Of a stretch of 64,000 nucleotides of DNA, positions 8,654-39,424 are shown in pieces. How positions within the stretch are numbered: position 1 is the first letter of the stretch; every line of letters starts with the position of its first letter. The notes under the pieces were generated by a model. That model was given only the letters and a program-made list of their open reading frames with translations. It did no database searches and was not told where the DNA came from. The translations under genes and the position numbers were made by a program. Origin of the DNA: Chthoniobacterales bacterium (lineage in GTDB: Bacteria; Verrucomicrobiota; Verrucomicrobiia; Chthoniobacterales; JBKEAD01); assembly GCA_047971915.1 (NCBI GenBank), contig JBKEAD010000240.1, forward strand, positions 1,133 through 65,132, read 5' to 3'.

Positions 8654-9967
8654 TTAAAATGACGTGATCTTTGCGAGAATTTTTTGAGCGGAGCGTTTCG
8701 CGGCACCCTGGTGAATGGTTAGGCTTGCGAGGCCGTTTTGATTCATTTTGTTGCAAAGTTCGGGGGATTGGAGGAGGTGCAGGAGGTTTTTTTGAAGTTC
8801 CTTTTTGTTTTGTACCTGGATGGCTCCTTTTGTTGCGAGTAGCTCTGCCGTGATTTGGGGAAAATTTTCCATATGTGGTCCGAAGACGATAGCTTTGCCC
8901 GCAATGAGAGCTTCGATGGGGTTTTGGCCACCACGTCCGATAAGGCTTTTGCCGATGAATACGACATCGCTTTCGCAATACCAAGAATCGAGTTCACCCG
9001 TGGAATCCACGACCAAAATATCGTTTTCTTCGTGTTTTTCGGAAGAGCGAAGTGTGGCGGAGAGGGAGAGCGCGTGTAGGTCGCTGAGGACTTCGTTTCG
9101 TCGTTCGGCATGGCGGGGAACGAGAATGAGAAAAAGGCGGGGGAGTTGTTTGCGGAGCTCGATGAAAATCTCGGCGAGGATTTTTTCTTCGCCCGGGTGT
9201 GTGCTGCCGGCGAGGAGGATAGGGCGGGGAGCAGAGCCAGCGACTTGTTTTAAAATTTGAGAAAGTTTTGGATTTTTTGTGGGTGTTGGTTGGTCGATTT
9301 GATCGTATTTGATGCTGCCGACAGGGTGGATATTTTCCTTGCGAGCACCGAGTGCTGCGAAGCGCTCCGCGTCGGTATTTGCCTGAACACCGATCCAATC
9401 CAACTGACTAAAAAGACCTCCAAGAAGCTGTCGGATGCGGAGATAACGTCGTTCAGATCGGGGCGAGAGGCGTGCATTTATAAGGGCGAGGAGGGCACCG
9501 TGTTTTTTTGCAGCGTGAGTTAGATTTGGCCAAATTTCGGCTTCGACCATAATGAGCGCACGGGGAGAAATGAGATTCATTGCGCGATGAACCGAGGGGT
9601 AGAAATCAACAGGATGATAAATAACTTGGGTGCGTGGTGTATCGCCGATGCGTTTATGGGCGAGGCTGAATCCGGTCGAGGTCGTGGAGGATAAGACGAT
9701 GGCTTGGTTTGGATTTTCGTTGCGGAGAGCCTGGATGAATTTAAGTGCTACGAGAACCTCGCCGACGCTGACTGCATGAACCCAGATGGCTTCGGAGCGC
9801 ATGGATAGTAGGCTCGCGGTCACGCGTTGGGAATAAACGGAAAAGCGCTGGCCGAATTTATGCCGATAATTTCCTCGTTTCAGCATACGGTATAAAAAAT
9901 TGGGAAGGAGGAAGAGGAGAACGAAAGGAAAAAAAAGATTGTAAAGGAGGAAAATAAGGCGGTTCAT
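8654..9967 (-). CDS. waaA: 3-deoxy-D-manno-octulosonic acid (Kdo) transferase
   Basis: 437 aa with an N-terminal TM, the IWVHAVSVGEV motif and a C-terminal glycosyltransferase region typical of WaaA/KdtA. Confidence 0.85.
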   Translation of the reverse strand: MNRLIFLLYNLFFPFVLLFLLPNFLYRMLKRGNYRHKFGQRFSVYSQRVTASLLSMRSEAIWVHAVSVGEVLVALKFIQALRNENPNQAIVLSSTTSTGFSLAHKRIGDTPRTQVIYHPVDFYPSVHRAMNLISPRALIMVEAEIWPNLTHAAKKHGALLALINARLSPRSERRYLRIRQLLGGLFSQLDWIGVQANTDAERFAALGARKENIHPVGSIKYDQIDQPTPTKNPKLSQILKQVAGSAPRPILLAGSTHPGEEKILAEIFIELRKQLPRLFLILVPRHAERRNEVLSDLHALSLSATLRSSEKHEENDILVVDSTGELDSWYCESDVVFIGKSLIGRGGQNPIEALIAGKAIVFGPHMENFPQITAELLATKGAIQVQNKKELQKNLLHLLQSPELCNKMNQNGLASLTIHQGAAKRSAQKILAKITSF

Positions 9968-23788: not shown

Positions 23789-23872
23789 CTAAAATTATGG
23801 AGTCTTACCCACTTTTAATCGCGCCCATCATAAACATAAAGGCGAAGTTTGAATTGACAGCGTCCCTTTTTT

Positions 23873-23888
23873 GGTATCTTCTGGTTCC
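23873..23888 (-). promoter_or_regulatory. Candidate operator site S3 (reverse complement GGAACCAGAAGATACC)
   Basis: Matches 12 of the 14 defined positions of GATACCAGnAnATACC. It ends 3 nt before the ATG of the H-X9-DG gene. Confidence 0.35.
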
Positions 23889-23891
23889 TCA

Positions 23892-24635
23892 ATGTATCGC
23901 ACATCCTGTTGTCCTCCCCGAATTTTTATTAGAGCGTTTACGCTGGTTGAGCTTCTCGCCGTCGTGTCGATCATTGCTGTGCTGGCCGTTTTGCTTTTTC
24001 CGGCCATTGAGGCGATGGCTAAGCGAGCGCATTTGGCTACTTGCATTAATAACTTGAAAACAATTTGTGCTGCTTCGGCAAGTTATTCAAGCGATCACAA
24101 CGGGAACTGGCCAAGGAGCCAAACTGGGAAGGCTATTTTTTCCAATGATTTGGTTTCGTATTTGGGAAACATACCGGGAAGGGGCGATAGTAACTTTAAA
24201 AAAAGCCCCTTTATTTGTCCGGCGGCAAATTCCCATAAGGAAGACGGGGGTTATATGTATGAAGGAATATATACGCCGGGTGCTTACGTTAACCCGGCGA
24301 CTGGGAAAACGGTAAGGTACGGTCTGAGCTACGCTCAGAATGTTTACGCAGATCGTACGCAAAGCAACTATTACGGAGTTCCAAAACGTTCGGCTGCCGA
24401 AAACCCATCGAAGATGATGCTCTATATGGACTGCGTTTCACACTATATTGTGTCTTTGGGAGGAATAAAAAATGAGGATCGTAAAGTAGAGCTTTTGGAG
24501 CGTCACAACGGCCTTATAAATACCGCCTTTGCGGACGGTAGCGTGCGAAGTCTGAAATATGAGGACATCCCGGGTAAGAATAGTCCGGTGCATTTGTTCT
24601 GGAGCGGGAGGGGGAAATCATGGCCCGAGGATTAA
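23892..24635 (+). CDS. Prepilin-type N-terminal cleavage/methylation-domain protein with H-X9-DG motif (DUF1559-like)
   Basis: It has RAFTLVELLAVVSIIAVLAVLLFPA (a type IV pilin-like leader and helix) and the C-terminal HNGLINTAFADGSV (H-X9-DG). Confidence 0.8.
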   Translation: MYRTSCCPPRIFIRAFTLVELLAVVSIIAVLAVLLFPAIEAMAKRAHLATCINNLKTICAASASYSSDHNGNWPRSQTGKAIFSNDLVSYLGNIPGRGDSNFKKSPFICPAANSHKEDGGYMYEGIYTPGAYVNPATGKTVRYGLSYAQNVYADRTQSNYYGVPKRSAAENPSKMMLYMDCVSHYIVSLGGIKNEDRKVELLERHNGLINTAFADGSVRSLKYEDIPGKNSPVHLFWSGRGKSWPED

Positions 24636-25570
24636 ACCCATCTGACTGGCAATTCGTTCATATTTGTGACATGCAGCCCGGGTCGCCGCGGTCCTTTCGT
24701 TTTCGTCCGGCTCATCTCGAGAATCAGCAACAGGCTTACCGCCAAATCCGTGCACTGCAACCTGAACTTCTCCTTGTTGGCGGTGACATAACTCGCGACG
24801 GGAGCATTCACGATTTTGAATTTGAAGAAGCTCACGAGCGGCTAAAAGAGCTGAACATCCCGTATTACGTTATTCCCGGAAACATGGATACGGGAAACAA
24901 GCATACTCGCGTTCAGGGTGCGAAGCCTGAACTGACTGATGATTTGGAGAGTAATATGACTTCGGAATCCTTGCAGCGGTTTCAGCGTTTTTTTGGTGCG
25001 TTTCCGTGGACATTTTTGCATAGAGGGGTGCGCTTTACTGGATTTTACGAGGCCGTTGCGGGTTCAGGTTTGCCGGAAGAAAAAATCCTTTGGGAATTTT
25101 TAGAAAAAACAGCCGCCTTGCCGCCTGCCGAACATCATGTCGTTTTAAATCACTATCCGCTTTTTGTGGATCATCCGAACGAGGAGGATTTTGATATTAG
25201 AGATCGGGAGGCTTATCATAATTGGTATTTTGCGATTGATAAAAAACCGCGAAAAAAAATCATCGACTTTTTGCATAAGGCCGGAGTGGGAACCGTCCTG
25301 AGTGGGCATATTCACTGTCGTCGGCCGGTTCAGGAGTTTGATGGGGTTCGGTATTTTAAATGTGCGGCGACGGGGTTTGGCCAATGGCCGGATCGTTGGC
25401 CGGACGGTGACATCACGCTCGGGTTTTACCGTTTTCATGTTTGTGGATCGAAACTGCGCGAAGAATTTGTGCCGTTGGAAAATGTTTCAACACGCACAGA
25501 TTCTTACGGACCCGGCGGACACCCTCGCCCCGAGCAGCGCGACTATAGTCTGGCTTGGGAAAAAGACTGA
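24620..25570 (+). CDS. Calcineurin-like metallophosphoesterase
   Basis: 316 aa with motifs HICDMQ, GGDITRDG, PGNMD, NHYP and SGHIHC in canonical order. Confidence 0.8.
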   Translation: MARGLNPSDWQFVHICDMQPGSPRSFRFRPAHLENQQQAYRQIRALQPELLLVGGDITRDGSIHDFEFEEAHERLKELNIPYYVIPGNMDTGNKHTRVQGAKPELTDDLESNMTSESLQRFQRFFGAFPWTFLHRGVRFTGFYEAVAGSGLPEEKILWEFLEKTAALPPAEHHVVLNHYPLFVDHPNEEDFDIRDREAYHNWYFAIDKKPRKKIIDFLHKAGVGTVLSGHIHCRRPVQEFDGVRYFKCAATGFGQWPDRWPDGDITLGFYRFHVCGSKLREEFVPLENVSTRTDSYGPGGHPRPEQRDYSLAWEKD

Positions 25571-26754
25571 CGTGCCTTTGGGGGCAACTGAGCACAGCTC
25601 ACTCCTTCGACCTCGCCGGGTGGAATGAGTTCCTGAAGTGGACTTTGTGCCGATTTGGTAATCAAAGCAACTACCTCCTTGAGGCCGCGCGGTACGATTT
25701 CATCCGGGTAAAGATAAGCCGTCCAGCGTAGGGCAAGTTTGTTCAACATGGCTTTTTCTGTGACTAATACAACGGAAAGTTCTGATGGGATGTGGATGGA
25801 GGCACGCTGAATTGCATTTTCGAAAGGAATCGAAAAGGCACTGCCAGCCACGACAGCCGCCGTGAATTTGTAGTTCTTTAAAAATGCCTGAATTACTTTT
25901 TCCAGATATGACGGATCCAAGTCATTATCAAAAAAGCAATCCTCTTTACGCAGCGGAAGCCCGGCTTCCTCCAGTGCGTTTTGATACCCCTGATAGGCCA
26001 TATTCATAAAGTCCTGATCGATAAAACCCGATATGTAACCAATCCGCTTGTGCCCGGCTTTCAGCAGTTTTTTGGTGGCCAGCATCGTCTGGCTAACATG
26101 GTCGGGCGACACAAAATTATATCCTGAATTTTTTAAATTTCGGGATATAACCATCAGTGGTAGTTTAAACGGCAAACTTTTTTCGTTTTTTAGCAGAGCA
26201 TCAATCCATTTCTGAGGTGGGCGATAAAGGATCATTCCATCGTAGCCTATTGGAGGCTCTTTTAGTATCTTTAGGAGATTTTCACTCGTTGGAACGTATC
26301 GGTAATGAACGATTGACTGGGTCTCGGCTTCCGCTTCGTGAATCATATCGTGATGCCGATGTGATACGGAAAAGGAATCTTTATTGAACCGCTCCAAGGC
26401 CAAAATACGAAACTGCCTTTTTTGGGGTGGCTCCAAAACAAAATTTCCGCACCCATGTGTTGCGGAAACATATCGGTGCTCGATGAGGTCGGCCAACGCC
26501 GCCCGGACCGTCCGGCGGCTGACTTTCAAAGTTTCAGATATGACACGCTCAGAAAGCAACATCCACCCTGGTTGTAGCTGACTTGTATCGATCCACTCAC
26601 GGATATGATCTGCCAACCGTCGATACAAAGGCAAGCTGGAATTTTCCTCGCGCAGAATAGGTGCTAATCCGACGAATAAATCGTTTACAATAGCCTTAGA
26701 CGACCTATCCGCGGCATCTTTTTGTTTTTTTAGCGGAGGGGCTGTAGTGGTCAT
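25543..26754 (-). CDS. Hybrid transcriptional regulator: GntR-type wHTH plus LacI/PBP1-type sugar-binding domain (AraR-like architecture)
   Basis: 403 aa. LPLYRRLADHIREWI...LLSERVISETLKVSRRTVRAALADLIEHRYV forms the GntR HTH. The C-terminal ~270 aa look like a periplasmic-binding-protein fold (GHKRIGYISG...). Confidence 0.8.
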   Translation of the reverse strand: MTTTAPPLKKQKDAADRSSKAIVNDLFVGLAPILREENSSLPLYRRLADHIREWIDTSQLQPGWMLLSERVISETLKVSRRTVRAALADLIEHRYVSATHGCGNFVLEPPQKRQFRILALERFNKDSFSVSHRHHDMIHEAEAETQSIVHYRYVPTSENLLKILKEPPIGYDGMILYRPPQKWIDALLKNEKSLPFKLPLMVISRNLKNSGYNFVSPDHVSQTMLATKKLLKAGHKRIGYISGFIDQDFMNMAYQGYQNALEEAGLPLRKEDCFFDNDLDPSYLEKVIQAFLKNYKFTAAVVAGSAFSIPFENAIQRASIHIPSELSVVLVTEKAMLNKLALRWTAYLYPDEIVPRGLKEVVALITKSAQSPLQELIPPGEVEGVSCAQLPPKARQSFSQARL

Positions 26755-26760
26755 TAGATG

Positions 26761-26776
26761 GATACCAGTTAAGACA
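26761..26776 (+). promoter_or_regulatory. Candidate operator site S4 (GATACCAGTTAAGACA)
   Basis: Shares 13/16 positions with S1. It lies 6 nt from the regulator start codon (26754, opposite strand). Confidence 0.35.
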
Positions 26777-26911
26777 AGCTCAAGGCAGGAGACAAGTTTT
26801 TATCCTAATAGGCTGCTAAAAAATACCCTCTGTAAATTGGACGGTTCTTCCCATTTAGAGAAATTCGGTGGTACGCTCTCAATTTTTGAATTTGTATTGA
26901 CGCGCATAAGA

Positions 26912-26927
26912 GATACCAGTAAATACC
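26912..26927 (+). promoter_or_regulatory. Candidate operator site S1 (GATACCAGTAAATACC)
   Basis: Contains the direct repeat ATACC-N5-ATACC. It is 14/16 identical to S2 and ends 4 nt before the DegT-like start codon. Confidence 0.45.
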
Positions 26928-26931
26928 TTTC

Positions 26932-28173
26932 ATGCATTCAACGTTACCTTCCCAAAAACAGTCACCGCAGCTCTCCCAAAAAGATTTTCAACGGGCATTG
27001 CTGGGAGACGCCGAACGCGAAGCGGCACTAAAGGTCATTGACCGGGCGATTGAAAACAAAACCGCTTTTGATCGCTACGGCGGTCAGGAAGTAGAGGCTT
27101 ACGAAAAAGAATTTGCTGCCCACATGGGCACGCGCTTTGCCACGGCGGTAAGCTCTGGGACGGCTGCTGTGCATACTTGTTTGGCTGCGTTGAATCTCGA
27201 ACCCGGCAGCGAAGTTATCTGTCCGCCAATCACTGATCAGGGTGGGATTGGTCCCGTTTTGGCTCAGCTTTGCATTCCGATTTTTGCCGATACCGATCCT
27301 GAAACCTTTAATGTTACGGCAGAATCTATCGAAAATTGTATCACTCCGCAAACTCGCGCAATCGTTGTTGCTCACATTGCTGGCGAACCCTGCGACATGG
27401 AGGCTATTATGGCTGTGGCCGAAAAATACAAACTTCCTGTTATCGAAGATGCAGCTCAGGCGCACGACGCAACATGGCTCGATCGCAAGGTCGGAAGTTT
27501 CGGAACTCTGGGTGCTTTTAGTCTGATGAATGGCAAGCACCACACGTCCGGCGGTCAAGGCGGGATGGTCGTTACCAATGACGAGGCGCTTTATTGGAGG
27601 GCGAAAAGCTTTGCCGACCGTGGAAAAAATTTTGGACAACCCGATGTCGGCGGTTTTATGGGGTTAAATTATCGGATGACCGAACTGGAAGCCGGCATTG
27701 GCCGCGTCCAGCTTCGGCGCCTCCCTGAATTTATCGAAAGTCGTCGCAGACTTGCCGGAATTTTAGAAGAAAGGTTAAAAAGTTCTAAATTGTTTTCACT
27801 GGGTTACATTCCGGAGCAGGCGCAATCCGCCTTTTGGTTTCTCCGAGTCCGAGTCCATCTTACAGGCACATCCACTGACAAAGAAAAAATTATCGCTGCT
27901 TTGCAGAAATACGGCGTGCTGGCAGCACCGACTTATACTTCCATCATTTACGAGCAAACGTGGTTTAAAGACAAACAGACCTTTGGTAGTTCGGAGATTC
28001 CTTGGTCGCTTCCGCAATGCCAGCGCGTGCCGAACTACACACATTGTGCTCCAAACTCAGAACAGGCGATGGCTAACCATATGCTCGTTGTCCTAAACGA
28101 ATCCCTGTCGATTGATACGATTAATCGTATGGCGGATGCGATGCTGAGTGTGGAAAAAGAGCTGCTTTCTTAA
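26932..28173 (+). CDS. DegT/DnrJ/EryC1/StrS-family PLP-dependent aminotransferase
   Basis: 413 aa with DAAQAH and FSLMNGKHHTSGGQGGMVVTND (PLP lysine context). Confidence 0.8.
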   Translation: MHSTLPSQKQSPQLSQKDFQRALLGDAEREAALKVIDRAIENKTAFDRYGGQEVEAYEKEFAAHMGTRFATAVSSGTAAVHTCLAALNLEPGSEVICPPITDQGGIGPVLAQLCIPIFADTDPETFNVTAESIENCITPQTRAIVVAHIAGEPCDMEAIMAVAEKYKLPVIEDAAQAHDATWLDRKVGSFGTLGAFSLMNGKHHTSGGQGGMVVTNDEALYWRAKSFADRGKNFGQPDVGGFMGLNYRMTELEAGIGRVQLRRLPEFIESRRRLAGILEERLKSSKLFSLGYIPEQAQSAFWFLRVRVHLTGTSTDKEKIIAALQKYGVLAAPTYTSIIYEQTWFKDKQTFGSSEIPWSLPQCQRVPNYTHCAPNSEQAMANHMLVVLNESLSIDTINRMADAMLSVEKELLS

Positions 28174-28202
28174 TCGGCTGTTAAGAGTGCTCAGGCTGAT
28201 TG

Positions 28203-28958
28203 CTAAGGCAAAAATGCACCTGCATTTTCGTGTCCGATGCGGTTTTGTGTGCTTGTATCGATCTCGGCATTACAAAGTTTATTCACTGCCGCTTGCGTAT
28301 AAAAAAATGGCGTATGTGAACCGAAAAGCAAACGCTCGGCAGGCGCAGTTTTTAGAAAATCTGCTAAGCCCCCTCCCGGTTCAATAAAGGAAATTTCACA
28401 AAATACATTTGTGGTCATCGTCAGGATCGAACGGGCTTCTGAAGCTGTCGCTCCCGTGATTAAAATCTTCAATTCTGGATAACGTGTTGCAAGCAATACA
28501 ACAAGCTCAGCAGACGGTGTCGGCACTTGCATCAGCGGATATTGGTTTCGCTCGTCCTCGACTCGCAATGTTAGGATGAGAGGAATTTTACATTCTATCA
28601 AAACAGAAACAAACTGCTCAATCGGTAAATCGAGTAGCGAATATTGATGATACGATGGCAAAATCCGAACGGCTTTTGCACCCATTTTTTCCACGGCTCT
28701 TTTCAAACTTTCCCGCCAATTTCCTAGGAGTGGATTCAGCGTTTTTATCGGTGTCACATTTGGAAAATTCCGAAAAGCGGAAAAGAGTCTGGCATCGGGC
28801 ACATCTGGATCGGGAAACAAAATCGACTCTACCGACGAAATCCACGCCTCGTCGGTTCCTTTGGCAGCAAGATGCTCAATCAGCTTCTCTGCCGAAAAAT
28901 CCGAAAAATCCATCCACGGCCAGAACCCATACGAAACATTGGTATCGACTAATTTCAT
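28203..28958 (-). CDS. Amidohydrolase-2-fold protein lacking the canonical metal-binding His pair
   Basis: ~251 aa. It starts MKLVDTNVSYG where the family normally has D.H.H, and ends LFGSHTPF instead of FGSD.P. The start is set at the ATGA overlap with the upstream gene; the track starts at 29006. Confidence 0.55.
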   Translation of the reverse strand: MKLVDTNVSYGFWPWMDFSDFSAEKLIEHLAAKGTDEAWISSVESILFPDPDVPDARLFSAFRNFPNVTPIKTLNPLLGNWRESLKRAVEKMGAKAVRILPSYHQYSLLDLPIEQFVSVLIECKIPLILTLRVEDERNQYPLMQVPTPSAELVVLLATRYPELKILITGATASEARSILTMTTNVFCEISFIEPGGGLADFLKTAPAERLLFGSHTPFFYTQAAVNKLCNAEIDTSTQNRIGHENAGAFLP

Positions 28959-29734
28959 GTCACATCCTCCGAAGAAATTTTTAATAATCGAGCAGCATTG
29001 CGCCACAAAATCAGCTCTCTATCTTGCTCTTTCAGCTTTGCTCCCTGAATACGCCCAAGTTGGCAAGCAAAGTCTCTTATTGGAAAATCTGAACCAAAAA
29101 GGACTCGCTCTGCACCAAGATGTCGCACCGCATACTCGACCATACCGGCAACCGCCGGAGAGCCTGAGGTATCCACGCTCACGTTTGCGTGGTGCTTGAT
29201 GTCGAGCACGCCGCGCATACCTCCCGCCGTCAAATGCGCCATTAAAATCTTTGTATTGGGATGCCTTTTCGCAAGGTGTGCAATGTCTGACGGGTCGGAT
29301 TCTTGCGGCACTTTATGCACGCTTTTATACCAGGCGTGATGCAAAAGAAAGGCATCTCGCGCAGCTAGAAATTCCATAATCGGGTCCAGTCGTGCATCCC
29401 GCGCATTGACCTCGAACTCTAGCTTCACGCCCGATAAGCCAGCCTCCAAACAACGTTCGATTTCTTTGATTAAAAACTTTTCCGGCAACATCGGATTTAA
29501 AAAACACAAGCCGAAAATTTCCCCCGGATGCCGCTGCACTAGCCCAATCGTCGCATCATTGATCGCCTGAATCCCAGCTTCATTTGGGTAAGCATAGAAA
29601 CACCCAAGCAGACACAGCTTGCAAATACCCAGTCGCCCCGCCTTTTCCAGCATCGCATCCCCCTCCTCGGGTCGCGGATGCTGCATCATCTTCCCCTCAT
29701 GCCAGCGCGGATGGGTATGAATATCGATAATCAT
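28955..29734 (-). CDS. Amidohydrolase-2 family metal-dependent hydrolase (TIM barrel)
   Basis: 259 aa with MIIDIHTHP at the N-terminus and VLFGSDFP near the C-terminus. Confidence 0.75.
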   Translation of the reverse strand: MIIDIHTHPRWHEGKMMQHPRPEEGDAMLEKAGRLGICKLCLLGCFYAYPNEAGIQAINDATIGLVQRHPGEIFGLCFLNPMLPEKFLIKEIERCLEAGLSGVKLEFEVNARDARLDPIMEFLAARDAFLLHHAWYKSVHKVPQESDPSDIAHLAKRHPNTKILMAHLTAGGMRGVLDIKHHANVSVDTSGSPAVAGMVEYAVRHLGAERVLFGSDFPIRDFACQLGRIQGAKLKEQDRELILWRNAARLLKISSEDVT

Positions 29735-29735
29735 T

Positions 29736-31658
29736 TCAAAGGGTATCCCCTAAAGAAACTCTGACAATTTCCGAACCGTTCGCAGTCGCCAAAATCGACG
29801 AAGCATCCAGACGCTCAAAAATACGCAGCGGCGGCACCTCGCCCAGAATAGTCGTTTTACCCGTTTCCAAATCGAATAATTGCAAGACCGATCTTTCAGC
29901 AGTTTCAGGAACAGATAACAGCAAAATATTTTCCTCCCAAAAAATACCCGACGTCGGCACCGCTCCTGACCATTTCCGCACGGAGCACTCTCCGCTCTCG
30001 ACATCAAATAAAAAATAGAGCCCCTCACCAAAGCCAAGTAAACGTCCTGCCGGAGAAATATCCAGTGCCAGCAAACTCTTACAAGGCCACGGCTCAGCCG
30101 TTCGGAGTGTTATTTTCCGCTTCGTATCCCAGACATAAATTACGGCATTTTCCGCCTCCGCCACACAGCTTCCCTGATCGCCATGAACCTCCGTCGTGCC
30201 AACCAAAAATTCTCCATACTGAAAACACGAAACCGGATTCTGTGTCGGAACAAAATCCCGAAAAACCTCTCTCTGGCCACTCGCCGGATCAATCGCGGTG
30301 ATCGCGCCGCCCAGTTCCCCATAGTCCGCTCGTGTCGTCACATACAAAAATCGTCCATCATTACAAAAACCCATTGGACGGCTTTGCTTGTGCCCGACTG
30401 AACTCAGCAAACGAGGGTTTTTTCCGAAAACGAAGGGCTCCTTCACCTGCCATGCAAAAACATTTGCATTCACATAAGCCGCGAAATAAACAACGCCATT
30501 CAAATACGTAAAACGCATGATCTGCCCGAGCCTTGGCGTCACCTTGTCCAGCGAGGAATGAGAGACGCCACTCTCCAAATCAACCGAAAAAATCTGACTG
30601 CTGATAAAATGCGCTCCCACCGCCAAGTTGCTGCCGGGAAGTTTTTTTAACGAACAAACATTCATTCCCCAGTCAGACGTATTATCAATCTGCGTGCTCT
30701 GAAGCGGTTCTCCCTTACCGGAAAATTTCACGACCATTCCATTATCGCCGAAGCAGGCGAACGTATCGCGAGCTATTTCAAAAACCCCGCCGTTCGGAAT
30801 ATTTCCGGTCTGCAAGCCCGTCCGAATTTTGCGACAGAGACCATGCGTCAATTCATAAACATCGCTTCTGTAAACACCACACGCCATCAGCCGATCTCCC
30901 TGCCACGCCACCCATCGCAACGTATCCGGTGCCTCTGTAAGAAAATCCGCCTCCCATTCCCCTGTCACAAAATTAAAGGTCCGAATCGTTTCCCCCACAC
31001 TGTAAATCACACGCTCCTCATCCAGCAAACAGAGCGAACGCAACTTGCCTTGATTTTCTTTAGCCACCTTCCAGCGCGAAACAATCTCAGCCTTCACCGG
31101 ATCGTAAATGAGAAACTCCGCCCGCGCTCCATAAAGCAAAACAAGCATCCGCCCATCCGGTAATTCCTGAAATTGATTCGCATACAAACCAAAGGTCACA
31201 TCCGGTGACGGCACGACAATCCGCCACTCACCGCTTGCAATCTCATATTCGACAAACTCCCCCGTCGGATACACTCCAAAGTAAAGTCGCCCGGCACGAC
31301 TCGCGCCACTCCCCCACGCTAAACGACGCGGCGTTTGCCCTGCAAAAGGATCCGCCAAAAGACAAAAGCGTTTCTCCTCAAAAATAAAACGATAAATCCG
31401 TCCTCCGAAAAAGCTCACATAAAGATTCCCATCCGCCCCCAGCACAAAGCCGTAAGGCCCCGATTCCCCTTCGGGCGCGGGGTGCCACTCCGATTCCAGC
31501 GTATCTGTATTCACCAAAAATATCCGCGCATCGCGTCCCTCATCCGAAATATTCATCGCTGCCAGACAGTGCCGCTCCGGCAGAAAAAACGTCTGTGTAT
31601 TCACTAGTGGCAGGCGACACGCAGGCCGTGCAAGCGGCTCAAGGAAAAATGATTTCAT
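29736..31658 (-). CDS. Cytoplasmic beta-propeller repeat protein, unknown function
   Basis: 640 aa with no signal peptide. It has many short beta-strand repeats with G-[DN]-G / Y-V / W motifs, suggesting one or two propellers. No specific family was recognised. Confidence 0.45.
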   Translation of the reverse strand: MKSFFLEPLARPACRLPLVNTQTFFLPERHCLAAMNISDEGRDARIFLVNTDTLESEWHPAPEGESGPYGFVLGADGNLYVSFFGGRIYRFIFEEKRFCLLADPFAGQTPRRLAWGSGASRAGRLYFGVYPTGEFVEYEIASGEWRIVVPSPDVTFGLYANQFQELPDGRMLVLLYGARAEFLIYDPVKAEIVSRWKVAKENQGKLRSLCLLDEERVIYSVGETIRTFNFVTGEWEADFLTEAPDTLRWVAWQGDRLMACGVYRSDVYELTHGLCRKIRTGLQTGNIPNGGVFEIARDTFACFGDNGMVVKFSGKGEPLQSTQIDNTSDWGMNVCSLKKLPGSNLAVGAHFISSQIFSVDLESGVSHSSLDKVTPRLGQIMRFTYLNGVVYFAAYVNANVFAWQVKEPFVFGKNPRLLSSVGHKQSRPMGFCNDGRFLYVTTRADYGELGGAITAIDPASGQREVFRDFVPTQNPVSCFQYGEFLVGTTEVHGDQGSCVAEAENAVIYVWDTKRKITLRTAEPWPCKSLLALDISPAGRLLGFGEGLYFLFDVESGECSVRKWSGAVPTSGIFWEENILLLSVPETAERSVLQLFDLETGKTTILGEVPPLRIFERLDASSILATANGSEIVRVSLGDTL

Positions 31659-31729
31659 ATTTTTAAAATTTGCAAAATAAAGCCTTCAATCATCATACAG
31701 GACAAGGGGGACAATAGACAATCCTATAA

Positions 31730-31745
31730 GATACCAGCAGATACC
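31730..31745 (+). promoter_or_regulatory. Candidate operator site S2 (GATACCAGCAGATACC)
   Basis: Contains ATACC-N5-ATACC. It lies 72 nt upstream of the beta-propeller operon start (31658, minus strand). The flanking ATAAG is also shared with S1. Confidence 0.45.
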
Positions 31746-31904: not shown

Positions 31905-32504
31905 ATGAATTTTCTCAAACTTGCTCAGACCCGCTACGCCACCAAACGCTATAATCCCGAAAAGGATATTCCGGAGGAAAAAATAAATGAACTCAAGGAG
32001 GTGCTGCGGCTTACTCCCTCATCCATTAATTGCCAGCCGTGGAGATTTACTTTTGTTCGAGATAAGGCACTAAAAGAGCGGCTTTCAGAGGTCTCTATGC
32101 ACAACACGCACAAGATTCAACAGGCACCATTACTCATTGTTTTCAGCGTTATCGACGACATTGTTGCCTTTGAAAAATGGGCGAACAGCGAATGGGAAGA
32201 GCGCATGATCGGAATGTATAATGCGGCCCGTCCATCGATGAGTGACGAGGAGATAAAAGTTTGGTTTTCCCGTCAGCTTTACATTTCTCTGGGCTACTGC
32301 ATGGCGGCTTGTGTCGCGATGGAGCTTGATTCGACGCCGATGGAAGGTATCGAGCAGGATAAATATGCAGAGATTTTGGATTCCGCGCCCTATCGACCAC
32401 TTTTTGCGGTGAGTGTTGGCTATCGTGTCGACGACGACGAAAATGATCCTAAACGCAACCCCAAAACCCGCCGAAAGCTTGCCGATGTCGTGGAGGCGAA
32501 GTAG
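31905..32504 (+). CDS. NAD(P)H nitroreductase family protein
   Basis: 199 aa with RYATKRY, LTPSSINCQPWRF and PMEG, typical of the NfsB/NfnB-like family. Confidence 0.8.
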   Translation: MNFLKLAQTRYATKRYNPEKDIPEEKINELKEVLRLTPSSINCQPWRFTFVRDKALKERLSEVSMHNTHKIQQAPLLIVFSVIDDIVAFEKWANSEWEERMIGMYNAARPSMSDEEIKVWFSRQLYISLGYCMAACVAMELDSTPMEGIEQDKYAEILDSAPYRPLFAVSVGYRVDDDENDPKRNPKTRRKLADVVEAK

Positions 32505-38692: not shown

Positions 38693-38831
38693 AATGGAAC
38701 AAGAAAAGGTGGATGAGACGGGCTGCAAGGTCAAGCGCAAGTCGAGTTTCTTGCTTTGTTCTCTAAAAAATAGAAAATTGCGTTGATTTTCATCGTGCGC
38801 ATCGAATGGAAATTTGGTATAATGAGCGGCT

Positions 38832-39266
38832 ATGAAAAAAACTTTGATCCTAGCGTTTATGTTGATCGTATTGCTCGGGGTTCTGACCGTGGGTGGACTG
38901 GGGTATTACTGGTATACAAAGCCAATCGAGTGGGGCTTGGCCGCTCAGATGTCAAATATTCCAGCGGAGCGGCGCGTGGAAATTTTAAAGGAATGTCAGA
39001 GAATCGGAATGAGCGATGAGGTGTTGGGAAAAGTGGTGCGAGAGCTGGATATGCAAGCAGAACTGGGAGCTACCAGTGAGGCGGAGGCAATAGAAAAGCT
39101 GCGTCAGAGGGTGATCATTCGTGAACACGGTAATACGGTTGGCTTTTTAGTGAAAGGCATCCGCGGCGATAAAGCTCATCTAGCTGAGATTGCAAAAAAA
39201 ATCTACGTTCACACGATGGGAATACCCGAAGCGGCCACGATGGATACCGAAAAAAAGAGTTTCTAA
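38832..39266 (+). CDS. Hypothetical membrane-anchored protein
   Basis: 144 aa with an N-terminal TM. No family recognised. Confidence 0.4.
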
Positions 39267-39310: not shown

Positions 39311-39424
39311 CTCCAGACAAAGCGGAGGACTTTTGGTATCATTAAAATTTTCTACTAAACGAACTCTTGGGCTGGTATCAAGGTGCTTACACACGTCTGA
39401 GAAACTGAAACTCATTAATATTGC

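Follow-up and report, generated by a model that had tools for sequence, protein, structure and literature searches.

The subject of this report is a short DNA motif that occurs at four sites, S1 to S4, in the non-coding spacers of a single gene cluster within the window, i.e., the 64-kb stretch of DNA from a Chthoniobacterales bacterium that was analysed here, together with a gene of the same cluster that codes for a regulator with a GntR-type winged helix-turn-helix (wHTH) and a LacI-type sensor. The genes, the sites and the putative promoter elements are listed in Table 1. The gene calls of a preliminary description of this DNA (DUF1559/prepilin-like, Metallophos, GntR plus Peripla_BP_3, DegT, two Amidohydro_2 and a propeller) were borne out by Pfam and NCBIfam. 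The rest of the window is made up of housekeeping genes (Lpt permeases, thiolase, CysRS, UvrD, Pta and a P-type ATPase).

The H-X9-DG protein carries the TIGR02532 N-terminal domain and a marginal match to SBP_bac_10 (23.0 bits, with a cut-off of 23.3); the prepilin motif FTLVELL and the C-terminal H-X9-DG element, seen as RHNGLINTAFADGSVR, are both visible in the alignment of its orthologs. The metallophosphoesterase gene overlaps it by 16 nt and has its own ribosome-binding site, GGGAGG. Translational coupling had been proposed for the amidohydrolase operon, and the ATGA overlap between its last two genes (28955-28958) was indeed read directly, the ATG of the second Amidohydro_2 gene overlapping the upstream stop and being served by the ribosome-binding site GGAGGA. 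Strong Shine–Dalgarno (SD) sequences stand mostly before such internal, translationally coupled operon genes (GGGAGG at 24620, GGAGGA at 28958). Comparison with the PDB gave only weak matches for the amidohydrolase, to gamma-resorcylate and ACMS decarboxylases, and the usual range of sugar aminotransferases for the DegT protein, and no substrate could be assigned to either. The propeller belongs to a small, lineage-restricted family, and its AlphaFold model has a pLDDT (predicted local distance difference test) of 92.5; Foldseek had been proposed as a means of guessing its substrate, which it did not provide, since the search of the model against the PDB returned generic eukaryotic double WD40-type propellers and no functional clue.

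Table 1. Genes, motif sites and putative promoter elements of the cluster. Positions are those of the window; bit scores of sites were obtained with a matrix lacking the window sites.
Feature	Position	Strand	Sequence	Remarks
Prepilin-like H-X9-DG (DUF1559) protein, first gene of unit	23892..24635	(+)		Pfam SBP_bac_10, NCBIfam prepilin N-terminal domain
Calcineurin-like metallophosphoesterase	24620..25570	(+)		Pfam Metallophos, E = 8e-14
Regulator, GntR wHTH (residues 43-106) + LacI/GalR-type periplasmic-binding-protein domain	25543..26754	(-)		Pfam GntR, Peripla_BP_3, Peripla_BP_1
DegT/DnrJ/EryC1-type pyridoxal-phosphate aminotransferase	26932..28173	(+)		Pfam, E = 6.5e-81
Second, divergent Amidohydro_2-fold protein	28203..28958	(-)		Pfam, E = 6.7e-10, partial match
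Amidohydro_2 metal-dependent hydrolase or decarboxylase fold	28955..29734	(-)		Pfam, E = 5.6e-28
640-residue tandem beta-propeller, first gene of operon	29736..31658	(-)		18 homologs, no Pfam family
S1, strongest site	26912..26927	(-)	GATACCAGTAAATACC; (-) GGTATTTACTGGTATC	4 nt from DegT ATG (26932); read directly; 25.0 bits
S2, strong site	31730..31745	(-)	GATACCAGCAGATACC; (-) GGTATCTGCTGGTATC	71 nt separate site from propeller ATG (31658); 19.7 bits
S3, class A site	23872..23888	(+)	TGGTATCTTCTGGTTCC; 23873-23888 on minus strand GGAACCAGAAGATACC	3 nt before ATG at 23892; 20.9 bits
S4, weak or half-site, candidate autoregulatory	26761..26776	(-)	GATACCAGTTAAGACA; in gene orientation TGTCTTAACTGGTATC	6 nt from regulator ATG (26754); 9.2 bits
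Putative -35 hexamer, DegT promoter	26897..26902	(+)	TTGACG	TTGAC at the same position in six orthologous promoters
Putative -10, DegT promoter	26920-26925		TAAATA	Covered by S1 along with part of the spacer
-35-like hexamer, H-X9-DG unit	23854..23859	(+)	TTGACA	13 nt upstream of S3; read directly

All four sites lie inside non-coding spacers, and the positions and sequences first given for them were found to be exact on re-reading. Their unit is (T)GGTATC, repeated at a 10-bp period. Read in the orientation of the gene, S3, S4 and S2 take the form GGTATCnnnTGGTATC followed by the gene, and S1 runs in the direction of the regulator gene, opposite to that of DegT. When up to 2 mismatches are allowed, the pattern GATACCAGNNNATACC has 4 matches in the 64 kb, which are exactly S1 to S4, with 0.54 expected. 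Because this pattern was derived from the sites themselves, i.e., post hoc and in a circular manner, independent tests were run. For these, the contigs that carry homologs of the regulator (38-57% identity) were located, which gave 10 non-redundant loci with a total of 151.6 kb; here and below, the labels L001-L063 denote related loci from other genomes or contigs. A position weight matrix (PWM) built from the 4 window sites only, a scan that the preliminary description had itself suggested, found 12 matches of at least 16 bits in the 151.6 kb, compared with 0.17 in dinucleotide shuffles. Conversely, a PWM built from 27 distinct non-window sites recovered S1, S3 and S2 in the window, where matches of at least 15 bits have a chance rate of 0.16 per window. 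By both tests the motif is far commoner in these spacers than chance would have it, and it recurs upstream of orthologous genes, namely those for the DegT and H-X9-DG proteins. The claim of four related sites is upheld, strongly for S1, S2 and S3, at 19.7-25.0 bits, and weakly for S4, which scores as a half-site on the same scale.

The consensus, taken from 34 distinct sites, reads (T/A)GGTATCTA(G/C)TGGT(A/T)TC and is 17 bp long, with an information content of ~24 bits. GGT (positions 1-3) and TGGT (10-13) are invariant in the 34 sites and C16 is nearly so, an invariance that is partly forced by the 17-bit selection threshold. The description of the motif as a direct repeat and not a palindrome holds for all 34 sites (GGTAT..N..TGGTAT, 10-bp period); the only self-complementary part is the central CTAG, and a third repeat, a hidden palindrome and conserved flanks were sought over the 34 sites and not found. 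The ATAAG flank that S1 and S2 were said to share is 2 nt out of register between them and has to be given up, there being no flank conservation over the 34 sites. The motif is absent from the remaining ~56 kb of the window in the PWM scan, was not seen at the other ~40 window genes or in the housekeeping halves of the related loci, and does not reach 11 bits anywhere in the 39 kb of L062 and L063, which come from related genomes that lack the regulator. It is, in short, real and conserved in related uncultured Verrucomicrobia. A weak match at 1449-1464 was dismissed, as it lies within an open reading frame (ORF) and misses the invariant G12. An element acting at the RNA level was judged unlikely, both orientations being found beside start codons, and an Rfam search of the window returned tRNA only.

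The regulator is a member of the GntR family by its Pfam match (E = 9.1e-12, residues 43-106, full model length), and the matches to Peripla_BP_3 (E = 9.7e-11, residues 228-387) and Peripla_BP_1 give it the AraR-type chimeric architecture. Its wHTH matched NagR/YvoA, AraR, FadR and DasR in the PDB, with scores of 1.1e-7 for NagR and 1.3e-5 for the AraR N-terminal domain, and its best NCBIfam matches were MocR-like. The sensor (residues 198-331) matched the cores of AscG, CcpA and PurR, and no AraR C-domain was among the PDB matches at E <= 0.01. The recognition helix VSRRTVRAAL is conserved in 14 aligned homologs, with R80, R81, T82 and R84 invariant; the strong conservation of the wHTH across the homologs fits a conserved operator. 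A single-sequence scan of genome contigs with the regulator yielded no close relative. An alignment-based scan found the family, which in a search of one genome per species was confined to metagenome-assembled genomes (MAGs) of Chthoniobacterales (Terrimicrobiaceae and Chthoniobacteraceae). The motif lies near most of the relatives with 37-57% identity (L017, L019, L021 and L023, with none in L022, at 42%), and the six loci where the regulator is matched only in part or at 24% identity have no motif, bar one 15-bit match in L027. One of the loci, L019 (JBEBUB010000211.1), is labelled as a Flavobacterium beibuense MAG and carries the verrucomicrobial regulator, the H-X9-DG gene and the operators in a layout near-identical to that of L015, labelled as a Chthoniobacter flavus MAG from the same study; the Flavobacterium label is probably a binning error.

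The link between motif and regulator was also followed in a regulator-blind manner, in which loci were gathered through DegT homology and the regulator was then sought by tblastn. The DegT orthologs are 55-76% identical. From 64% identity upwards every one of them bears a site at the ATG (L030-L036 and L056, as well as L061 with a GGTACC variant), those at 55-56% (L040, L041) have a diverged variant of the site, and a variant form likewise precedes DegT in L016. At the 21 loci of more distant DegT homologs the leaders are of the ordinary kind, with an SD, and lack the site. Regulator matches were obtained in L034, L035, L036, L040, L041, L056 and L061, five of these loci being clearly site-positive and two having a variant site; the site-negative loci gave no such match. 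In nine or more loci the gene for the GntR/periplasmic-binding-protein regulator and DegT are divergent neighbours. L036 is one of these, and its divergon is isolated amid helicase, TilS and SerRS genes, which marks the regulator-DegT pair as the core module. The motif is thereby tied to the hybrid regulator by co-occurrence, as had been proposed, and it is missing from loci whose only homologs of the regulator or of DegT are distant ones.

Two further groups of sites were seen in these loci. More distant regulators (32-39% identity) come with variant operators, such as GGTATACACTGGTTCA and GGTTACTAGTGGTACA, both ending in A, and GGTA(T/C)CGTGTGGTA(T/C)C, which are located at 9922-9937 and 14563-14578 in L016, 1273-1288 in L040, 5921-5936 in L036 and 2533-2548 in L061; this pairing hints at a co-variation of regulator and site. 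Contiguous units (GTGGTATCTGGTATC, 7-bp period) are found upstream of the regulator in L004 (9875-9889) and L008 (3861-3875), a subgroup that has a divergent operon of peptidase M19 and D-Ser-dehydratase-like genes.

About 20 of the 27 matches have the start codon of a long ORF within 1-10 nt, and they take one of two orientations. In class B the order is GATACC..ATACC, N4-7, ATG. Sites of this class stand ahead of DegT in six loci (the window, L001, L004, L006, L010, L015) and ahead of a Pel9A-like gene in L012, and class B-oriented sites are found 61 nt upstream of a gene for a 300-residue Amidohydro_2 protein in L004 and L006. The alignment of the DegT promoters from six loci reads TTGAC(G/A), 17 nt, TA(A/G)(A/G)(T/A)A, 6-7 nt, ATG, and this geometry of promoter and operator has been kept even though the regulators of the six loci are only 45-57% identical. 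The class B operator covers the whole -10 hexamer together with the 8 nt of spacer before it and 2 nt after it, and ends ~4 nt from the ATG. In all six loci the putative -10 ends 6-7 nt before the ATG and the putative -35 lies a further 17 nt upstream; leaderless promoters have these elements at about 6-7 nt and 16-18 nt, respectively. Such spacing implies a transcript start at the A of the ATG, and a leaderless DegT mRNA is accordingly predicted.

In class A the order is TGGTATCTA..TGGTxxC, N1-10 (mostly 1-6), ATG. Sites of this class precede the H-X9-DG genes of the window, L009, L010, L015 and L019 (orthologs with 42-49% identity), as well as several genes for proteins of 1000-1500 residues, a second family of ~232 residues, and the regulator itself. 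A T always stands before the first GG, which yields an extended -10 (TGnTATCTA); in S3 the first unit doubles as such an element (TGgTATCTT). Most class A sites also have a TTGAC-like hexamer 12-16 nt ahead of the motif, and class A transcripts would start 2-7 nt before the ATG.

From what is conserved in these loci, the protein most likely to dock on the motif is the sugar-sensing repressor of the GntR type that is encoded next to it. The reading that we favour, with a probability of about three in four, is that S1-S4 are operators of the regulator encoded at 25543-26754, which would repress a glycan or amino-sugar regulon by occlusion of its promoters. We infer in this the binding by the regulator, the repression, the leaderless transcription, the effector and the substrate. 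A full operator would consist of two tandem copies of (T/A)GGTAT(C/T), which the 10-bp period places on one face of the helix. The strong sites would overlap sigma-70-like core promoters, with transcripts starting at the start codon or a few nt before it: in class B (DegT), with a promoter conserved as TTGAC(G/A), 17 nt, TA(A/G)ATA, 6 nt, ATG, the operator would lie over the -10 of a leaderless mRNA, and in class A (the H-X9-DG gene, the genes for large secreted-type proteins and the regulator) the first repeat, with TTGACA 12-16 nt ahead of it, would itself be the extended -10 (TGgTATCTA). As long as there is no inducer, the bound regulator would block RNA polymerase, and a sugar-derived ligand in the periplasmic-binding-protein-like domain would then lead to its release. 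The regulon would be a polysaccharide or amino-sugar module of the Chthoniobacterales with the regulator-DegT divergon and the H-X9-DG gene as its core, and with the lyase-like, esterase, amidohydrolase and propeller genes as members that vary with the lineage.

Operators of the GntR family are usually palindromes, with the direct repeats of NanR (TGGTATAW), NagQ (TGGTATT) and GabR (ATACCA) as exceptions (PMC4494728), and the NanR dimer was found by cryo-electron microscopy to sit asymmetrically on GGTATA repeats (PMC8012715). The remark in the preliminary description that a direct repeat is unusual for a GntR regulator is thus correct, with the proviso that NanR, NagQ and GabR are precedents with the same unit (PMC4494728, PMC8012715); the unit seen here, (T)GGTAT(A/T/C) in direct orientation, is that of their operators. 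NanR of E. coli, of the GntR/FadR subfamily, has a GntR wHTH and tandem direct GGTAT(A/C) repeats in a (GGTATA)3 operator that overlaps the promoter, and it is freed by a sugar (acid) inducer (PMC8012715; PMC4494728), as is predicted for the present system. It differs in having an all-helical FadR-type sensor and three repeats on which three dimers bind cooperatively, whereas the window system has a LacI/GalR-type sensor and two repeats with a strict 10-bp period, and belongs to a different phylum. NagQ (HutC; predicted TGGTATT direct repeats) and GabR/PdxR (MocR; ATACCA direct repeats) share a near-identical unit (PMC4494728), and the window wHTH scores best against HutC- and MocR-type domains. 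Their effector domains are UTRA and aminotransferase-like, respectively, and the GabR repeats are 34 bp apart in contrast to the contiguous units with a 10-bp period found here.

AraR of Bacillus subtilis is likewise composed of a GntR wHTH and a LacI/GalR-type sugar-binding domain, and is an autoregulated repressor of carbohydrate genes (PMC4494728). The window wHTH is, however, closer to NagR than to AraR, and an independent fusion, separate from AraR, is possible. AraR governs the arabinose regulon in Firmicutes and its operators are palindromic, whereas all 34 sites considered here are direct repeats, and no araA/B/D-like or other pentose genes are present in the window cluster or the 10 related loci. 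Because the type of operator and the gene content differ and no AraR C-domain was matched, the regulator can be called AraR-like in its architecture only. In the survey of the family a palindromic GT/AC consensus is stated for FadR and HutC only (PMC4494728). By analogy, the best reading is that the present regulator works in the manner of NanR/NagQ-type repression on direct repeats.

Several points weigh against the proposed repression by the neighbouring regulator. L031-L033 carry the DegT site and have no regulator within the sequence examined. All of the loci come from uncultured MAGs or metagenomes and are phylogenetically related, so that the counts of co-occurrence are not independent events. 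For a two-fold symmetric LacI-type dimer to bind a direct repeat, its wHTH domains have to be arranged asymmetrically, on a linker of roughly 8 residues. In the putative -10 hexamers (TAAATA, TAGATA) the usual T at the end is missing, and for that reason the conserved promoters of DegT and of the H-X9-DG gene escape a generic sigma-70 scan, the matches of which are at chance level in the region (8, with 9.1 expected); the assignment of promoters therefore derives only from the conservation of their geometry across loci. The lack of an SD before the regulated first genes, considered as evidence for leaderless messages, was rejected: SD-like sequences precede 8 of the 46 window genes, and in such an SD-poor genome their absence at regulated genes is uninformative. 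A scarcity of SD sequences is known from some Verrucomicrobia (PMC10783764). S4, finally, is a half-site in which only the second unit, CTGGTATC, is intact, with a leave-window-out score of 9.2 bits, and its backing is mainly positional. Similar TGGTATC-containing sequences also precede the start of the regulator in L001, L004, L006 and L008.

The motif might instead be a promoter element and nothing else, i.e., a lineage-specific extended -10 and discriminator of leaderless genes that RNA polymerase or a sigma factor would read, and beside which the regulator gene lies by coincidence. The first class A unit (TGnTATCTA) does resemble an extended -10, the reverse complement TAGATA is found at the -10 distance in class B, a -35-like TTGAC stands at a fixed distance, and the sites abut start codons. 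Such an element would hardly hold ~24 bits with GGT...TGGT...C conserved beyond any -10 hexamer, nor be used in both orientations to the gene with a separate directional -35; the motif is, moreover, missing at the other ~40 window genes and in the housekeeping halves of the related loci, and its unit is a documented recognition sequence of GntR wHTH domains, all of which makes this explanation quite improbable. Marginally less so is the view that the operators belong to another factor encoded elsewhere, such as an unlinked GntR/HutC or MocR paralog or a regulator of the AraC or LacI type. The DegT sites of L031-L033 without a family regulator in the sequence examined speak for it, as do the AraC-type genes in L010 and L015, the LacI-type gene in L016 and the use of the TGGTAT unit by several GntR subfamilies. 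The AraC and LacI genes are found in a minority of the site-bearing loci only, whereas the GntR/periplasmic-binding-protein gene is the sole common regulator, lies next to the most conserved target, in divergent orientation, in nine or more loci and has half-sites or variant sites ahead of its own start. That the four sites are a mere chance resemblance among AT-rich spacers can be set aside almost entirely: the original pattern was post hoc, drawn from the same sites, and S4 by itself is within chance, but the independent PWM tests and the conservation across loci have already refuted chance for S1, S2 and S3.

Which unit is controlled by S2 is ambiguous. The spacer that holds the site separates two divergent units, the propeller operon and that of a nitroreductase gene at 31905, and it counts against simple occlusion that, at 71 nt from the propeller ATG, three promoter geometries fit it: class A towards the propeller, with TTGCAT 13 nt upstream of the motif; a class-B-like TAGACA-17-CAGATA towards the nitroreductase gene; and a position just upstream of TTGTCT-18-TATGAT at 31721-31692 on the minus strand. 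The regulator could accordingly act otherwise at S2, either by controlling the nitroreductase/amidase/racemase unit, towards which the class-B-like match points rightwards, or by activating the TTGTCT-18-TATGAT promoter of the propeller, which lies directly downstream of S2 on the minus strand. This alternative, possible yet the less probable course at S2, is also favoured by the unlinked propeller operons in L062 (from the same genome as L010) and L063, which have no site; it is countered by the promoter-like matches around S2 not being above chance (8 vs 9.1), by the equally good fit of the class A geometry, and by the presence of propeller/amidohydrolase operon and regulator on one contig in at least five cases (the window, L001, L004, L005 and L013). 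The preliminary description had counted the propeller operon as a member of the regulon; the lack of a site in L062 and L063 makes the propeller a variable member and not a core target. In the propeller leader a 13-codon upstream ORF (ATGATGATTGAAGGC...ATATGA, 31696-31655 on the minus strand) has a stop that overlaps the propeller ATG (ATATGA); it could serve translational coupling or be due to chance, and it would be left out of the transcript if the TTGTCT-18-TATGAT promoter were used.

The TGGTATC heptamer itself occurs 13 times in the window compared with 3.5 times in shuffles, with four copies in the operators. The other copies are mostly on the plus strand and coding (10806, 11559, 17081, 17944, 22522, 28940 and 52260), an excess that may reflect codon or dipeptide bias. 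A direct pair of heptamers 39 bp apart (39334-39340 and 39373-39379, plus strand) lies in the spacer before the UvrD/Rep helicase gene (39425); its spacing recalls the GabR type (ATACCA, 34 nt, ATACCA) and not the 10-bp operator, and the pair could be a site of another GntR/MocR-type factor or a chance occurrence. At 38811-38822, just upstream of a small ORF at 38833, there is a near-perfect extended -10, TTGGTATAAT, which shows that promoters of the TGnTATAAT type are in use in this genome.

In the related loci, DegT with genes for heparinase II/III-like proteins behind it lies beside the regulator and under the motif. The same holds for genes that code for Pel9A-like beta-helix proteins (~640 to >1000 residues), further proteins of 1000-1500 residues that match no family clearly, esterase-like proteins of the glucuronoyl and acetyl types, peptidase M19, D-Ser-dehydratase-like enzymes, Amidohydro_2 proteins and H-X9-DG proteins. 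The conserved core is best read as the regulator, DegT and the H-X9-DG pseudopilin-like gene, with DegT as the most conserved target. The second secreted-looking family, of ~232-274 residues (L015 5220-5915, L012 14588-15286, L005 3073-3897), is distinct from the H-X9-DG proteins and has no Pfam family, and in L012 and L005 it has an operator of its own. Judged by these family matches, the gene set looks less like an isolated pathway than like a portion of a locus by which Verrucomicrobia use polysaccharides or amino sugars. The preliminary description did not recognise the combination as any described pathway, and no prior description was found in searches on H-X9-DG, DUF1559 and GntR regulons in Verrucomicrobia. 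As in the polysaccharide utilisation loci (PULs) of the Bacteroidota, a local sensor or regulator lies beside degradative enzymes and a putative surface or uptake component. In contrast to these, there is no SusC/SusD pair here, the candidate surface component is the prepilin-like H-X9-DG protein, and the regulator of the window is a putative cytoplasmic one-component repressor.

Verrucomicrobiota are abundant degraders of polysaccharides in soil and freshwater and are mostly uncultured, and no reconstructed regulon was found for them in the literature searched; searches on H-X9-DG, DUF1559 and GntR regulons in Verrucomicrobia returned nothing relevant. The sharply defined ~24-bit operator, together with a candidate regulator and a conserved set of targets, makes the present case testable, and the PWM can be used for annotating further members of the regulon in Chthoniobacterales genomes. 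The case would be a first well-defined regulon for the Chthoniobacterales, and in it an AraR-like architecture would read direct repeats. The arrangement suggests that promoter, operator and start codon are compressed within ~40 bp, with leaderless transcripts, in an SD-poor lineage. The H-X9-DG/DUF1559 family, which is large and uncharacterised and has very little literature, gains a concrete regulatory context, a proposed co-regulation with catabolic genes for glycans or amino sugars. A bolder and speculative extension, which we consider rather unlikely as a whole, is that the H-X9-DG/DUF1559 pseudopilins of the Chthoniobacterales, and possibly of the Planctomycetes-Verrucomicrobia-Chlamydiae (PVC) superphylum, are substrate-specific, sugar-induced parts of glycan capture or uptake and functional counterparts of SusD, with a pseudopilin gene for every utilisation locus that is co-repressed along with the enzymes of that locus by paralogous GntR/LacI-sensor repressors, and with the inducer being made by DegT transamination. 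If this were true, the highly conserved DegT would have a catabolic role not described so far, the transamination of an amino or keto sugar, and these bacteria would have a distinct "PUL grammar", in which tandem TGGTATC repeats are laid on leaderless promoters.

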